From NCBI GenBank assembly GCA_963821525.1, contig CAWGED010000019.1, positions 1 to 64,000 on the forward strand: 64,000 bases of DNA, in the 5' to 3' direction. The translations under genes and the position numbers were made by a program. The stretch comes from an uncultured Gemmatimonadales bacterium. GTDB lineage: Bacteria; Gemmatimonadota; Gemmatimonadetes; Gemmatimonadales; GWC2-71-9. The number at the start of each line of letters is the position of its first letter. Position 1 is the first letter of the stretch. Below are positions 41,808-53,869 of this stretch, piece by piece. Below the pieces are notes generated by a model. That model did not search any database. It saw only the letters and a list, made by a program, of their open reading frames with translations, and was not told the DNA's origin.

Positions 41808-41830
41808 CGGGCTCGCGGCCTGACGATCGC

Positions 41831-42083
41831 CTACTGGCTCAGGCGCTTGGGATCGCCACCCGAAGGCGGGGTCGAGACCTTCGAGTCGATCTGGCGCGAT
41901 CCGCCATTGCGATCGGGCTCGTTGCCGGTGATGGCGTCGTTGGTATCGCTCAGGCTCCGCTTGAACTCACGGATTCCCTTGCCGAACGACGCGCCGATCT
42001 CGGGCAGGCGCTTGGCGCCGAACAAGGAGTAGAACGGCCACGAGGATGAGCAGCAGCTCGGGGAAACCGATGTTATTGAACAT
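41831..42083 (-). CDS. tatA: TatA/E translocase subunit (frameshift near 42030)
   Basis: MFNNIGFPELLLIL..LFGAKRLPEIGASFGKGIREFK. Confidence 0.9.
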
Positions 42084-42097
42084 GGCGACTCCAGCAC

Positions 42098-47549: not shown

Positions 47550-48713
47550 CTAGTGGGTGCCGCCCCTGCCGACCAACAGCTCGATGTTGCCGGGATCGGT
47601 CTGGAAGGACCAGTCGACGATAATGAAGTTCTTGCCTGCGTGAGTGACGCGAAGCGCGCCAAACCGGGCGAAACCATCCCCGCCATCCATTTCAAACACG
47701 TAGCCCCAACCCGGCAGCGCCTCCAGACCGGCCAGCCCAAAACCGTTGACCGGCGCGGCGTCGATACTGGTGAGGTCGGCGACCGGTGCGTTGCCATAGA
47801 GCGCCACCTTGGTGCCCGCTCGGACCGGCGTGATGAAGAGAGCCTCACTGGCGTCCCGCTCCACCGAGAAGTCCTCGCTGGGAGAGGAGCCGAGTCCGAC
47901 CACTCCAATCTCATTCGGCTGCGCCACGCCATCGTGGTTGAAGTCGTTCCAGAAGCGGAACCCGCTCTCGTCATCCTGTTGCTGCCTGGCGTAGAGAACC
48001 ACATTGCGGGCATCCGGCCTCGGCGTGTCCTGGTGAATCGGTGACCAGAGACTCTCGAACCCTTCGATGCTGATCGCCGACACTCCGAAGCACCGCGGAG
48101 AACCGTTCGGGAGAGCACCGGCGACGAACTCGGGGGCTACCGTGGTTCCCTCAAGAGCCCACTGGTCGAGGCAGAGGTCGTTGTCCAGATCGTATGGAGT
48201 GCTGTAGACCCGATAGACCTTGAAAGCCGACGGATCAGAGGCGAAGGCGTTGTCGGACCAGGTCAACGCGATCGCGCCATTCAGAGAGGTCGTGGTCAGA
48301 GTGGCCGGCTTCTGAAGCGCGAGGCGTTCATCCACGGTTATGACATTGCTCGGCCCGCTCTCGACGCCGGCTTGATCCTCCGCAGTGACGTAATACTGGA
48401 GATGCGGAATACCGTTGTCGTGGAACGTGCTGGAAGTGGTCGATCCCCGAAGCAGGTACGACTCCGAGGTAGAACCACGGGAGTAGATGTGCCAGACCGC
48501 GAGGGCGGGATTCCCGTCGTCCTCCCAGCTCAGCAACACGCCGCTGGGCGCGCCGGGGGTGCCACTGGGTTCCACTTCGTAAGTGAGGTTCGCCGGGGGC
48601 GCGACTTGTCCGCCACCGCCGCCGACGGGGTTGGTGCCATAGTCGTTGCAGGCCACCAGGGCTGCGAGAGCGAGGGCCAAGGCCGGCATCGCGCGGGACA
48701 TCGTAGTCTCCAT
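47550..48713 (-). CDS. lipoprotein with two FN3-like beta-sandwich repeats
   Basis: Lipobox LVAC; YYVTAEDQAGVESGPS and FGVSAISIEGFESLWS. Confidence 0.7.
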   Translation of the reverse strand: METTMSRAMPALALALAALVACNDYGTNPVGGGGGQVAPPANLTYEVEPSGTPGAPSGVLLSWEDDGNPALAVWHIYSRGSTSESYLLRGSTTSSTFHDNGIPHLQYYVTAEDQAGVESGPSNVITVDERLALQKPATLTTTSLNGAIALTWSDNAFASDPSAFKVYRVYSTPYDLDNDLCLDQWALEGTTVAPEFVAGALPNGSPRCFGVSAISIEGFESLWSPIHQDTPRPDARNVVLYARQQQDDESGFRFWNDFNHDGVAQPNEIGVVGLGSSPSEDFSVERDASEALFITPVRAGTKVALYGNAPVADLTSIDAAPVNGFGLAGLEALPGWGYVFEMDGGDGFARFGALRVTHAGKNFIIVDWSFQTDPGNIELLVGRGGTH

Positions 48714-48916
48714 GTCGGGGAATCGTCAGCGCTATAGGCAGCCCGGATGCCATCCGGGGCATTATCGTAACTCATTGTGATATTGGTAGTTACGTATTAG
48801 TACCAGGTTTCGTTGATGTCCCCGGGTGCGGACAATCCATCGTCATCGGACTGCGGATTTGTTCAGCGGGAGACTAAGCAGGGGGTCTTGTGCTGCGGGA
48901 GCTGCGCAGACCGAGG

Positions 48917-51900
48917 CTACCGCTCGAACGTGGTCTGGTTGTAGTCGCCTTTGATTTCAGGCATGTCGGAGAGGAAGATCGAAAAATAGAAGGAGAAGTT
49001 GCCGTTCGCGTTGCGGACGAAATTGAAGGCGGCCCGCCATTCGTGGAGGTTCCGCTCCAGCCGGACCACGTTCGATTCAAAGTCCTTATCGGTGATGTTG
49101 TACTGGGACGACCAGGACACGGTCCACAAGGGCGTCGGAGAGAAGGACGTGCTGAAGCCCAGATTCTGCCGAGTCGGCTGACTCAACGCTGCGGTCGGGC
49201 GGGTACGTGAGAGCGTGTAGTTGAAGTTGGCGGTGAAGCGGCGGCTGCTGAATCCGGGCTGCAGGGCGTTGTTGTCCGACGTATAGAACGAGGGGGGGCG
49301 GCCGTTGCGGCTTTGACTGGCTACGTACGAGGGCGGGGGCGGTTCGTTGGTTCCCTGCTTTGCGGGCTTGGCCAGACCGAACAACCGCAGCACCGCGTTT
49401 ACCGTCCCACTGGAGACCGCAAAACCGGTCGTAGCGCTCGAAAGGAAGAGGTCGAAATGGCTCGCATCAAACCCGACGGGGCCATTCCAGAGGTCATGCG
49501 TCAGACTCAGGTTGAACCCCGGAACGAGATCGCTCTGGAACGTGTTGGTCACGCTCTGAGTCGTCCACCCATTCCGTCCCGGTTGCTTGGCCTGCTCGAA
49601 GTCGTAGGACACCGCAGATGTGGTAATTCCCAGCAGGCGGTATTTCCTCGTCTGGTCCTGTTCTGTTGAATCGGCGACCGTCGTATCGCCGGCCGCTTTC
49701 TTCGCTTTGCCTTCGATGTTTTGCGAGAGGCCGATGCTCAGGGTCTGGGTAGCAGGGGTGCGAGTCGAAACGGGCTGTCCGGGCCCCACGATGGCGCGGG
49801 CAAATTCCTGGGAGACGCTCGCCGCCGGATTGTAGGTGTAACTGATGGTCGGTGAGACGCTGTGCCGGATCCGGGCGATCGGCCCGAAGCCGGGGAAGAA
49901 TCCGAAGAAGGTCGGCGAGGACGTTACGCCGAAGTTGAACCGCTTGCCCTGAAATACCCAGTCCCCATTGGTGTTGCGATTGCGGATGGCGAACGGCCCA
50001 ATCGAGCTCGCGTTGGCCACACCCAGCACAGGCTGGAGTTTCCACGAGGCCCGAAACAGCGTAGGAAGGTTGATCCCCGTCTCCCAGTCGAAACTGCTGG
50101 AGAAATCCCCAGTGAAGGTCCGCGCGACGATGATCGAATCCGTTGGATCGGGTGTCGAGGGATCGGGAATCTTGATGGGAAGAGCGGTCAGCGACCCCTC
50201 ACGCTTCTGGTCGTTATAGGCGAAGGAGTTCCGGAAGTCCCAACCGCCGAAGCGGACCGGGGTGTCGAAGTTCATCGCGGTGGCCCGCTGGTCGAACGTC
50301 GAGCTCAGGGTATCCTTCCCGCCGCCGGGCAACACTCGGACCTGAGCATTCGGGCTGTTGTTGGTGAGATCATTGGTGATGCTGAACCCGGGGGACCACG
50401 TGATGTCCCTGGTGATGTCGATGGGCTTGGGAGAGATGGCCAGCGCCGGAAGCTGCATCGTGGTCGGCTGCCCCGTGGAGAGCGGCTGCCGGCGGTTGGC
50501 GCCGAGGTTCACGTTGCCCCAGGCAAAGCGCTTGGAAAAATTGGCGGAGCTGAGGATCTGCTGGGTGGAAAGCAGGGGATCCAGCGCGTTGTCGCTCACC
50601 ACCTGGGAGTTGCTGGCGTAGTTCAGGCTCAGGTTGAGCGAGGTACTCAGGTCAAAATTCTGGCGATGGTCCCACCGGATGTTGGTCGACGAGGACCCGG
50701 TGTTCTCGTGCTGCTGGTTGTAGGCAATCGCCCCGCTCACAAATCGGTTCAGCCAGCGGTACTGCCCTGCCACCCCATACTGGACATAGCGATTGTCGTA
50801 GAAGTCCAGCCGGGCGGTGAAATCCAGGTAGTCGTTAGCCGCCCAGTAGTAGCCTACGTTGGTGATTTGCCGATTGTACCCGCCGTTGGGTCGGACAATG
50901 TCGTTGAGCCCGAACCGCGGAATCAAGATTCCCGAGTGCCGGCCGGGCCGTCCATCCGCCCAGACGAAGGGGAGCCAGAGGACCGGCACATCCCGCACAT
51001 AGAGGACGGCGGGCCGAGCGATCATGATGGTCTGCGCGATCCACTTCACTTCCTTGGCGGAAAAGTGGTAGTGGGGCTCGGGTAGATCGCAGCTGGTGAT
51101 GTCGCTTGAGGAGGCGTAGACCCTTGAGGCACTGGAGTCCTGGGCCAGATTTCCCCGCAGAAACCAGTCGCTGCTGTTCTGCTTGAAGCTGGTGAGCGCC
51201 TTGGTCACGACTCCGCGCCGAATGCAGGTGTCGTAGCGAATGCCACCGCCGCCGGTCAGGACCGTCTCCCCATCGAAGAGGTTGGGAGTTCCCGAGGCCT
51301 CGATGAGACACGTGGTCTCCTGGTACAGAATCGAATCCGCCTCGAGCGTTGTGGTTCCGCGGCGAGTCATCGCCTTGCTGTCGAGGAAAATGCGGCGCTC
51401 GTCGGCGAGGACTGTGGCCGAATCCGATCGGTACCGCGTGGCTTCATACCCCTCCAGGAGCTGAAGCTCGGCGAGAGTCGAATCGTCGGGGGCGAAGGTG
51501 TAGCTCGGACCGGTGGGGAGACCAAGCCGACGGGCCGTTGCCGTATCCACCGCCTGGCCGGGCCGGACCCGGGTCGAGTCGGGGGGAAGGGTATCCCCCG
51601 GACCCCGTTGCACCGGCCGTCCGGGCTTGGGTGGGGGCACGGGCTGCTGGGCTGCAGCCCGATCCGGCAGGGCGAACAGAGCGAAGAAGATTACCGCGGC
51701 CGTGGCGGCGCGCCGGCGCCGGCGGTCGATGACCCAGGCGCCCACGAACCCGACCTCGTAAAGCAGCCACAGCGGCACGGTCATCATGATCATCGAGAGT
51801 ACGTCGGTGCCGGGCGAAAGGATTGCTCCGGCGAACATGCAGAGTACCATCGCGTAACGACGGAACCGGTGCAGGCCCATCGGCGAGATGACACCAACCG

Positions 51901-52450
51901 CCGCGAGGAGGATGATGACCAGCGGCAACTCGAAAGAGATCCCCATCGCGAGCACGATCTGCAGCACGAAACTGAAGTACTCGTTGTAGGTAATGACGAG
52001 CGCCAACGCCTCGGACTGGAAACTGAACAGCACGCGCAAAGCCTGGGGCAGCAGGTAGAAATACCCCAGGGACGATCCGGTCAGGAACAGGACCAATCCG
52101 AATCCCAGCGCCGGCATGATCGCTTTGCGTTCCCGGTCGTAGAGGGCCGGTGCGAGGAAGGCCCAGATCTGGTATATGATGATCGGGGAGACGAGAACGA
52201 CGCCGGTGATGAAGCCCAGTTTGAGGACGATCATCACCGGATCGGTGGGACTCAGGACCGCGAGCTTCCCGCCGGTGCTGGCGAGGTAGGGAGCGATCGG
52301 CTGTTTGAGGAGTGTGACGAGCTGAAACCGCTGGACCAACCAGAGACCGACTCCGAACCCCACGACGATCGCCCCGAGGGCTCGGATCAGCCGGATTCGG
52401 AGCTCCTCGAGGTGCTCGAGGAAGGGCATCTCCGCGCCCGGACCGGTCAT
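48917..52450 (-). CDS. tatC: TatC fused in frame to an LptD-like outer-membrane protein (1177 aa)
   Basis: aa 1-245 TatC (MPFLEHLEELRIRL, YQIWAFLAPAL, FELP, LYEVG); then RRRRR-hydrophobic-AAA|QQ; then LptD-like TSCDLPEPHYHF, RHSGILIP, GYYWA, ERNLHEW. Confidence 0.85.
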   Translation of the reverse strand: MTGPGAEMPFLEHLEELRIRLIRALGAIVVGFGVGLWLVQRFQLVTLLKQPIAPYLASTGGKLAVLSPTDPVMIVLKLGFITGVVLVSPIIIYQIWAFLAPALYDRERKAIMPALGFGLVLFLTGSSLGYFYLLPQALRVLFSFQSEALALVITYNEYFSFVLQIVLAMGISFELPLVIILLAAVGVISPMGLHRFRRYAMVLCMFAGAILSPGTDVLSMIMMTVPLWLLYEVGFVGAWVIDRRRRRAATAAVIFFALFALPDRAAAQQPVPPPKPGRPVQRGPGDTLPPDSTRVRPGQAVDTATARRLGLPTGPSYTFAPDDSTLAELQLLEGYEATRYRSDSATVLADERRIFLDSKAMTRRGTTTLEADSILYQETTCLIEASGTPNLFDGETVLTGGGGIRYDTCIRRGVVTKALTSFKQNSSDWFLRGNLAQDSSASRVYASSSDITSCDLPEPHYHFSAKEVKWIAQTIMIARPAVLYVRDVPVLWLPFVWADGRPGRHSGILIPRFGLNDIVRPNGGYNRQITNVGYYWAANDYLDFTARLDFYDNRYVQYGVAGQYRWLNRFVSGAIAYNQQHENTGSSSTNIRWDHRQNFDLSTSLNLSLNYASNSQVVSDNALDPLLSTQQILSSANFSKRFAWGNVNLGANRRQPLSTGQPTTMQLPALAISPKPIDITRDITWSPGFSITNDLTNNSPNAQVRVLPGGGKDTLSSTFDQRATAMNFDTPVRFGGWDFRNSFAYNDQKREGSLTALPIKIPDPSTPDPTDSIIVARTFTGDFSSSFDWETGINLPTLFRASWKLQPVLGVANASSIGPFAIRNRNTNGDWVFQGKRFNFGVTSSPTFFGFFPGFGPIARIRHSVSPTISYTYNPAASVSQEFARAIVGPGQPVSTRTPATQTLSIGLSQNIEGKAKKAAGDTTVADSTEQDQTRKYRLLGITTSAVSYDFEQAKQPGRNGWTTQSVTNTFQSDLVPGFNLSLTHDLWNGPVGFDASHFDLFLSSATTGFAVSSGTVNAVLRLFGLAKPAKQGTNEPPPPSYVASQSRNGRPPSFYTSDNNALQPGFSSRRFTANFNYTLSRTRPTAALSQPTRQNLGFSTSFSPTPLWTVSWSSQYNITDKDFESNVVRLERNLHEWRAAFNFVRNANGNFSFYFSIFLSDMPEIKGDYNQTTFER

Positions 52451-52466
52451 GCGGCCGATCCGGGTG

Positions 52467-53273
52467 CTACCGTCCGAGCGACTTCAGGCGATCTCGCGCG
52501 AGGGCCGCTTCGTCGGAACGGGGATAATCGGAGATGACGCGCTGGTAGTAGGCCTTCGCGCCTTCGAGATCCTTCCTGCGTTCCGCCACGAGTCCGAGCT
52601 TGTAGACCGCACTCGCCGCCCGAATCGACTGGGGTGCTGTCTCCACCACTTTCTGGTAGTAGCCCACCGCCGAATCGGGCGACTCCGCAGCGAAGCTCTC
52701 TCCGATGAAGTAGTTGGCATCAGGGACTCGAGGATCCGTCGGATACAGCCGGAGGAATTCCCGGAACCCGGTGCGCGCGGTTCCCGGCGATCCCCGCCGG
52801 AGCTGGTTCAGACTGGCTTCGTACATCTGGTCGGCTGAGGGCTGTGCAGCACCGGCCGCAGGGGCGGGCCGGGAGCTATCCGATGGAGCGGGAGCGGCGT
52901 TAAGCTGCTCTCCCCGCGCCTCGAGCTGAGTGCGGAGCTCGGTGAGACGCTGCTGGCTCTGGCCGGTTAGAGCCTGAATCTGAACCAGCTGCTGCTGAAT
53001 ATTGTAGAGATCGTTGGCGAGGTCGCCCTTGGCGGTACCCACCTGCCGCGAGGTCTGCTCCGCGGTGCGGGCCAGGGAGGACAGCGAATCCATGGTCCGC
53101 CGCTGGGTCTCGAGGATCTGGGCGAGTTGAACGGCGCGAGCCGAGTCGGCACGCATGTTTTCGGCGCGACTCAGGACCAGTTGTTCCTCGAGCCGGCGCA
53201 TGTCGCCCTTGGAGGCACAGGCTCCAAGGGCGAGCAGGCCCAGCGCGATGGCCGGGCAGTGGCGTGCGAGCAT
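52467..53273 (-). CDS. cpoB: tol-pal TPR lipoprotein CpoB/YbgF
   Basis: Lipobox LGAC, coiled coil, TPR PDANYFIGESF..YPRSDEA; follows pal. Confidence 0.85.
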   Translation of the reverse strand: MLARHCPAIALGLLALGACASKGDMRRLEEQLVLSRAENMRADSARAVQLAQILETQRRTMDSLSSLARTAEQTSRQVGTAKGDLANDLYNIQQQLVQIQALTGQSQQRLTELRTQLEARGEQLNAAPAPSDSSRPAPAAGAAQPSADQMYEASLNQLRRGSPGTARTGFREFLRLYPTDPRVPDANYFIGESFAAESPDSAVGYYQKVVETAPQSIRAASAVYKLGLVAERRKDLEGAKAYYQRVISDYPRSDEAALARDRLKSLGR

Positions 53274-53869
53274 TACTGGGGTGGCACCAGTGATTCGCCT
53301 CCGGCCGTCACCTCGAACTCATCGCGGCGATTCTTGGCCCAGGCGCCCTCATCGTGACCGGGATCGAGCGGACGCTCTTCCCCAAACGAAATGACTTCAA
53401 CGCGACCGGCATCTATGCCCTTATTCACCAGCTGGCGCTTGGCCGCGCCGGCGCGGCGGTTGCCCAGCGCCAGGTTGTATTCATCCGATCCGCGCTCGTC
53501 CGCATGGCCGCTTACCCGGAGCCGGACGCCTGGATTGGCCTGCATGATGGCGGCCTTGCGGTCCAGGTTGGAGACATCGTCCGACAGAATATCGGCCTTG
53601 TCGAAATCGAAGTGGATCATGGCCACCAGCTGCTGTAACGCCGTCGCGCGATCCGCTGCCGCCTTCTCGGCCGCTTCGCGGGCGAGACGGTCGCGTTCGG
53701 CTTGCTCACGGGCCGCCTTTGCCGCGGCATCCTCGGACGGAGGTGTCGGAGCGGGCTGGTTAGCCGTCGGCGTCGGCTGGGGAGCCGGAGCTTCGGGTTC
53801 GGCCTTCTTCCCGCATGCGATCAGGCCCACAGCTGCGACGATCGTGAGGAGGCGGAACTGGAGATGCAT
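53273..53869 (-). CDS. pal: peptidoglycan-associated lipoprotein
   Basis: Lipobox LIAC; IHFDFDK, GHADERGSDEYNLALGNRRA, KNRRDEF. Confidence 0.93.
   Translation of the reverse strand: MHLQFRLLTIVAAVGLIACGKKAEPEAPAPQPTPTANQPAPTPPSEDAAAKAAREQAERDRLAREAAEKAAADRATALQQLVAMIHFDFDKADILSDDVSNLDRKAAIMQANPGVRLRVSGHADERGSDEYNLALGNRRAGAAKRQLVNKGIDAGRVEVISFGEERPLDPGHDEGAWAKNRRDEFEVTAGGESLVPPQ

Follow-up and report, generated by a model that had tools for sequence, protein, structure and literature searches.

A tatC-lptD fusion in Gemmatimonadales with a conserved signal-peptidase-type site between its two proteins

How might one gene supply a protein to the inner membrane and another to the outer membrane? 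The question is raised by a fused reading frame in a window of 64,000 nucleotides from an uncultured Gemmatimonadales bacterium (GenBank assembly GCA_963821525.1, contig CAWGED010000019.1, positions 1 to 64,000), the window being the whole stretch of DNA that was analyzed. At 48917..52450 on the minus strand, where all other features of the window given below also lie, tatC of the Tat translocase runs on into lptD, the gene of the lipopolysaccharide (LPS) insertase, and with no stop codon in between the single frame amounts to 1177 aa. A sequence-only reading of the window had taken the product for a polyprotein. Comparison with relatives supports the part of that claim that concerns one chain with a signal-peptidase-type site, while the cleavage is a prediction. 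We consider it likely, judging by sequence comparison, that one polypeptide is exported by Sec and cut by signal peptidase I after Ala267.

The joining of a complete TatC to an LptD-like barrel, as first read from the frame alone, is borne out in that two intact folds are present. Pfam matches TatC (PF00902) at aa 12-226, covering positions 1-208 of the 208 in the model with E = 6 × 10−60, and LptD_2 (PF19838) at aa 477-675 with E = 6 × 10−35, above its cut-off. The NCBIfam tatC equivalog TIGR00945 scores 199.6 bits against a cut-off of 132.7. Proteobacterial LptD models of NCBIfam match the fused protein weakly, far under cut-off, and the proteobacterial Pfam model PF04453 (LptD) finds nothing in this genome, whose completeness is 81%. 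The fused gene is the only tatC and the only LptD_2 gene found there. The AlphaFold2 model, made with a 130-sequence alignment, has a mean predicted local distance difference test (pLDDT) score of 84.7 and contains the TatC helices, a beta-jellyroll, and a large barrel. With it, Foldseek ranks LptD structures in all of places 1-16, the best with E = 8 × 10−26, and TatC structures next, so that the LptD-family match expected of the C-terminal part is found by structure as well as by LptD_2.

TatC occupies aa 1-242 (51725..52450), with pLDDT mostly 80-96 over aa 11-240 and Foldseek TMt of 0.77-0.79 against 4b4a and 4hts (0.77 for 4b4a). Its F98 and E107 fall at the positions of the twin-arginine-binding F94 and E103 in E. 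coli numbering, as given in the available text of a TatC review (PMC13673990), and that pattern is present in all 111 of the fused junction loci compared below. The TatC half lacks a free cytoplasmic C-terminus, since the chain runs on into a seventh hydrophobic segment and then into LptD. In the model, the seventh helix is a mere extension of transmembrane helix 6 (TM6) with pLDDT about 50, too low for any special packing to be read there, and the low-confidence stretch as a whole spans aa ~250-300. The predicted mature LptD, aa 268-1177 (48920..51649), is identified by Pfam, by profile matches to 7omm and 8h1r, and by the model, in which a Pro-rich low-confidence linker leads to the jellyroll at ~338-499 and the barrel at ~506-1174. 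Beyond aa 520 there are 28 strands of at least 8 residues, a count in which barrel and loop strands are not separated. The jellyroll has cysteines C381, C409, and C454, kept in 93, 93, and 114 of 130 alignment rows, and the barrel has none.

The frame is also found outside this one assembly. The range 47.5-58 kb had been described as having no obvious frameshifts, and the neighboring genes there are indeed intact, but the same assembly is frameshifted nearby at 40-47 kb, tatA included, which is 2-9 kb from the fused gene and made a test for an artefact necessary. Contigs from 4 of 24 listed runs (X1, X3, X15, and X16) were compared with the junction. It is crossed with 0 gaps by two DNA runs, in an X1 contig at 51267-52700 and an X3 contig at 50805-52700, and by a contig of the RNA-library run X15 at 51569-52013; the contigs of run X16 do not cover it. 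Three independent runs are in this way gap-free with no indel, and the RNA runs, being contigs, speak neither to start sites nor to strand. Among the 120 best near-length homologues, searched in the range 647-2060 aa, 119 have both domains and the remaining one is an 871-aa fragment. In a phylum search, 113 genomes of the same family were scored and 111 gave a match; a hand count with checks finds 100 of these to be in frame across the junction, including the unpublished G083 and G202 and also G046, whose contig ends past the junction. The long TatC proteins carrying an LptD domain that the sequence-only reading had proposed to look for are found in these relatives, and the nearest named relatives are Gemmatimonadales metagenome-assembled genomes.

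At the junction, LYE at aa 230 is followed by RRRRR at aa 243-247 and by Q268 beginning at 51649, exactly as first read. Comparison of junctions assigns the arginines (51710..51724) as the basic cytoplasmic tail of TatC, and as a putative n-region, and aa 248-261 (51668..51709) as a hydrophobic h-region. The c-region would be PDRAAA at aa 262-267 (51650..51667), with signal peptidase I predicted to sever A267 from Q268 (51650/51649). The segment has the basic n-region, the core, and the small residues at -3 and -1 of a signal peptide, and departs from one in position, since it starts after 242 residues and not at an N-terminus.

For the comparison we collected 111 distinct fused junctions, leaving out before counting the duplicates, L115 (fused, with no anchor motif), L172/L173, L026 in some counts, the frameshifted fused-type loci L142/L151/L155, and the unpublished-genome loci L020, L054, L213, L222, and L239. 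All 111 have a hydrophobic core and then small-x-[A/G/S] followed by Q, in a sequence that otherwise varies freely, the h-region included, and over lengths of 35 to 73 codons the frame is always kept. Anchored on the first Q past the core, position -1 is A, G, or S in 104, and in all 111 once a second Q no more than 4 residues further is allowed; with that shift -3 is A, L, V, G, S, T, or M in 111 of 111. The same -3/-1 context precedes just 382 of the 3538 Q residues of mature LptD. The choice of Q as anchor carries some circularity, which does not extend to the -1/-3 pattern or to the narrow spacing from the core. The median net charge is +4, and the median Kyte-Doolittle score of the 8-residue core is 3.2. 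The N-terminal signal peptides of unfused LptD (n = 46) have the same build, with -1 as A, G, or S in 44 and a median core-to-Q distance of 8. That the basic tail of TatC serves as the n-region had also been proposed, and it agrees with at least 3 R/K at the tail in 49 of 54 unfused TatC and in 109 of 111 fused junctions.

The genome has one signal peptidase I gene. A crude scan of this genome that ignored Q predicts 83 N-terminal signal peptides, of which 53 have Q at +1 against a background of 8%, an apparent Q-rule outside Bacteroidetes. Type I glutaminyl cyclase (PF05096) has no match in the 81%-complete genome, the search having been for that type and not for the type II enzyme.

The history of the locus shows the fused gene to be interchangeable with ordinary genes. 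The 196 loci classed, duplicates included, comprise 124 fused, 63 split, 5 at a contig end, and 4 without a downstream lptD. In unfused relatives, the lptD start sits on the tatC stop, overlapping as ATGA or GTGA (-1) in 42 of 53 and lying within -1 to +7 in 48. A FastTree tree of 159 loci explains the states with 6 changes, namely a single fusion ancestral to the family, three reversions, and a further two separate fusions in sister family f2. Trees of TatC only and LptD only give the same placements with 6 and 7 changes, and 21-22 fusions are needed if reversions are disallowed. A Longimicrobiales TatC query brings in further fusions, which on a 112-row tree with 9 changes in total fall into a clade of 29 proteins, a pair apart from it, and a single doubtful protein. 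The motif is present in 29 of 31 Longimicrobiales fusions directly and in 31 of 31 after the same second-Q shift, and three published genomes (L210-L212) confirm these fusions at the DNA level. On these trees there would be at least five independent fusion origins and three reversions.

The three reversions (L070, L071, and L025/L067) have regained overlapping start and stop codons. In two further genomes, G011 (L244) and G016 (L243), the tatC half is lost from the locus and LptD is kept behind a junction-like signal, with another TatC, 41% identical, elsewhere in each genome. G011 keeps a 24-residue remnant of the TatC N-terminus (46% identity, E = 9 × 10−6) followed by an overlapping new start, and in G016 the frame opens where tatC would start and leads directly into the junction-like signal. 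Other arrangements seen are one more split locus in the family (G005); in genus g44 of the family, a stand-alone tatC with no lptD in 3.5 kb downstream (L068 in G091 and L069 in G192); and, in L237 (G208), a second TatC-like gene between tatC and lptD, read by eye from its start.

Because fusion, reversion, and loss of the TatC half have all happened, and some of them repeatedly, the link between TatC and LptD looks tolerated rather than needed. The sequence-only reading had seen in the fusion a means to 1:1 stoichiometry. That is probably not its purpose, given that most unfused pairs are already coupled by overlap and that the fusion has been undone several times, which suggests an accident that was tolerated in two genes already coupled. 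Most relatives, fused or unfused, have a single TatA gene, and its number shows no link to the fusion.

The course of events that we propose begins with tatC and lptD adjacent and their stop and start codons overlapping. Comparison with the split loci shows that a short deletion took the last residues of TatC, the tatC stop, and the start and n-region of LptD, placing the basic tail of TatC directly ahead of the old h- and c-regions of the LptD signal. One ribosome would then make the whole chain. From established Sec biology, SecYEG would insert the six helices of TatC, ending in the cytoplasm, the seventh segment would enter N-in/C-out as an internal signal, and LptD would be threaded unfolded into the periplasm. 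Signal peptidase I would cut after Ala267, LptD with its N-terminal Gln would pass to chaperones, BAM, and LptE, and TatC would be left with the used signal as its seventh helix, barring further trimming. Such a fusion may persist and recur as functionally near-neutral, and not through cooperation of TatC with LptD. An indirect parallel is that in E. coli a signal peptidase I site placed after TM3 of a polytopic fusion improved the function of AmiA, a gain that its authors read as release, in a construct exported by Tat (available text of PMC3471235).

A number of points weigh against this proposal. The cut after Ala267, the Sec route, and the sizes of the products are predictions, and in a genome 81% complete a second lptD or tatC may have been missed. 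The junction contains an apolar run of at least 19 residues, enough for a true transmembrane helix, in 29 of 111. The ordering of gains and losses depends on parsimony with midpoint-rooted FastTree trees, and BLAST of the G016 leader against TatC gives no significant match. A cleavage site would be conserved just as well if LptD came from an internal start, and the candidate start in this genome has a Shine-Dalgarno (SD) energy of -7.1 kcal/mol against the genome's own 16S tail, where real lptD starts have a median of -6.3. A start with an SD of -6 or stronger occurs in 33 of 111 junctions, where seven control windows give 6-28 of 111.

The last three of these points bear on a nested gene, in which LptD would be made mostly from a start inside TM6 as an ordinary preprotein, the long product being incidental. 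The sequence-only reading had noticed a possible second start in an in-frame GTG preceded by GAGG in the last TatC helix. The GTG is there, at aa 236 (51745), with the GAGG upstream (together 51743..51757), but junction comparison shows that it is not conserved, since ATG, GTG, or TTG occupies that codon in 15 of 111. Some start codon lies between the YE motif of TM6 and the h-core in 89 of 111 and none in the other 22; the most frequent single position for one reaches at most 31 of 111. A conserved internal start is accordingly unsupported. The GTG share of Val codons there is 0.57 against 0.52-0.54 elsewhere, and ATGs in the first half of TM6 show no excess of SDs over unfused TatC, with 19 of 111 in fused loci and 10 of 54 in split ones. 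The SD excess at junctions may come partly from a conserved Glu codon, and since the tatC start itself reaches no more than -3.5, the SD test has little power here. Two Gemmatimonadaceae fusions (L028 and L061) do retain a Met where the h-region begins. For the family as a whole, internal initiation cannot be the answer, although it may be a leak in some members, and with no in-frame stop the ribosomes that start at tatC would still yield a long chain in need of processing. We hold the nested gene to be unlikely, although it is the strongest of the alternatives to a single chain cut by signal peptidase.

If there is one chain, it might also remain uncut, with a permanent seventh helix and an LptD folded in the outer membrane while tethered to TatC. 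The long apolar runs in 29 junctions would suit this, as would the ~65 residues of largely low-confidence linker ahead of the jellyroll. A longer linker made for a tether is not seen, its median of 66 (n = 99) comparing with 64 in unfused LptD (n = 41), and on that account a permanent tether is unlikely. All 111 junctions carry the cleavage motif, reversions and losses of the TatC half exist, and LamB A23D, a barrel that stays tethered and uncleaved, fails to assemble in the outer membrane and proves toxic (available text of PMC4817254). Taken together, we give a trans-envelope protein very little chance. We rate equally low a chain split otherwise than by signal peptidase I at A267, whether by an intramembrane or periplasmic protease or by recoding that ends TatC. 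Its sole positive point is a TAA in another frame at the junction of this genome, which the sequence-only reading had pointed out and which is present. The conserved feature, in contrast, is the -3/-1/+1 pattern, in junctions whose variable lengths always keep frame, and an informal look by eye at the junction DNA finds no conserved slippery or stop element.

A marginally poorer candidate is that RRRRR is an internal twin-arginine signal, by which LptD would be exported by Tat, possibly by the attached TatC, as in a dual Sec-Tat protein. RR is present in 102 of 111 junctions and a basic c-region residue in 45 of 111, and internal Tat signals are known, from the available texts of PMC3471235 and PMC5449189, to follow an even number of helices inserted by Sec. 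The consensus RRx[FL][LI] is absent, with 0 of 111, and 9 junctions have no RR. Where present, the RR directly abuts TM6, at offset 13 from the leucine of LYE in 85 of 111, while about 8 loop residues are required (available text of PMC5449189), and the same RR occurs in 46 of 54 unfused TatC tails. Tat export is unlikely on both counts, the missing consensus and the closeness of the RR to TM6. It also counts against Tat that beta-barrels cross the inner membrane unfolded via Sec. An assembly artefact fusing two genes has practically no chance, for although it could draw on the nearby frameshifts and on a relative (L233) that does resemble an artefactual fusion, with a garbled tail and its ATG kept with an SD of -9.5, it is rejected on the homologues, the family genomes, and the independent run contigs.

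Upstream of the fused gene, NCBIfam and synteny identify cpoB/ybgF at 52467..53273 as the end of the tol-pal run. Of the loci tested, all 39 fused ones and 28 of the 29 split ones have it upstream, and the fused gene lies downstream of tol-pal, as the sequence-only reading had it. Downstream, at 47550..48713, is a gene for a 387-aa lipoprotein-like protein with no Pfam match and FN3-like by Atlas features. It falls in Gemmatimonadota clusters, keeps its synteny in 33 of the 34 fused loci tested and in 14 of the 27 split ones, and is a possible LptD accessory. The frameshifted tatA is at ~41830-42090, about 7 kb downstream of the fused gene, and the other frameshifted genes at 40-47 kb, named by eye, are histidine ammonia-lyase-like, TPR, and prenyltransferase-like. 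LptE is present by tblastn with relatives' sequences (45-57% identity), the Pfam search of the genome having missed it, and lpxC is present in two pieces on contig C5. The breaks in tatA, its neighbors, and lpxC are probably sequencing indels. The genome also has four Tat-type signal peptides, and the LptA/LptD_N Pfam model has no match in it at its 81% completeness. A promoter and terminator scan of 48500-53500 gives 2 and 4 sites where 0.9 and 3.0 are expected by chance, and none of them is convincing; the junction itself holds one weak terminator-like stem.

Other internal-signal candidates were seen. The gene at L209:2449-3981 on the plus strand of contig C5 of the same genome reads as a vWA domain, a transmembrane helix, RR, a hydrophobic stretch, AHA then Q, and what we take to be a TPR-like region, and it sits between a vWA gene and a presumably BatD-like gene. 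A scan of 532 open frames with at least 2 hydrophobic segments gives 6 matches, of which the four besides tatC-lptD and the vWA-TPR gene look like plain loops. P0149 has TatC, a signal-like segment (GA then Q), and a carboxypeptidase-regulatory-like domain, in a single sequence that may be an artefact.

If the proposed cut by signal peptidase I is correct, there is an entire bacterial family in which the LPS insertase is made solely as a tail on the Tat translocase, and in which outer-membrane biogenesis begins from a polytopic inner-membrane precursor. The locus would be a natural test of signal peptidase I on an internal signal after six helices, of barrel handover to BAM after co-translational export, and of how TatC tolerates a seventh helix beside TM6. 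The machinery is ordinary and the arrangement looks near-neutral, a caution that domain fusion need not mean functional partnership. For annotation, named database entries label these 1.1-1.2k-residue proteins just TatC, which hides lptD. It is conceivable, although we lean against it, that signal-peptidase-resolved polyproteins are a general and overlooked bacterial architecture, in which one deletion between a basic-tailed inner-membrane protein and a coupled secreted protein gives a self-resolving fusion. TatC-LptD would then be the first case supplying both membranes, with a seven-helix C-out TatC, and the vWA-TPR gene and P0149 would be further cases.

How novel is the arrangement? No description of a TatC-LptD fusion was found in the literature searched, a scope outside which fall most subscription papers and all supplements. 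The terms "LptD" and "Gemmatimonad" are absent from the available text of the TatC review PMC13673990, "Gemmatimonad" from that of the Q-rule paper PMC5837995, and "internal signal" and "polyprotein" from that of the signal-peptide review PMC9360617. The nearest known state is the separate coupled tatC and lptD of other Gemmatimonadota (L022, L023, L027, L030, L164, and L178), with the same proteins, order after cpoB, h- and c-region, and A/Q site; these have the overlapping stop and start, while the fused gene lacks the stop, the start, and the LptD n-region. The Gln at +1 is that of the Bacteroidetes Q-rule for signal peptidase I sites (PMC5837995). The haloarchaeal 14-TM TatCt and 10-TM TatCx are likewise TatC proteins extended C-terminally by membrane segments, but the additions are transmembrane helices or a second TatC, unlike LptD (PMC13673990). 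Dual Sec-Tat proteins such as the actinobacterial Rieske protein also have an internal signal-like helix after Sec-inserted helices, with arginines ahead, but they require a Tat consensus together with about 8 loop residues and a folded domain that carries a cofactor (PMC3471235, PMC5449189). TatC-LptD has none of these and has, unlike them, a conserved cleavage site.

Polyproteins resolved at internal signals are themselves an established kind. In the polyproteins of flavi-, pesti-, and bunyaviruses, the signal peptidase of the endoplasmic reticulum (ER) cuts at internal signals, the tail of one protein carrying the signal of the next; those are eukaryotic or viral, and TatC-LptD is a chromosomal bacterial housekeeping locus. 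The cytochrome b-c1 precursor FbcH of Bradyrhizobium japonicum, which the literature searched did not turn up, joins a polytopic protein to a second protein through an internal cleavable signal. TatC-LptD matches it at the sequence level, as one ORF with an internal signal and cleavage site. The products of FbcH are both subunits of one inner-membrane complex, whereas those of tatC-lptD belong to unrelated machines in two membranes. The kind of polyprotein is already known, and the TatC-LptD fusion, itself real and conserved, would be an instance of it.

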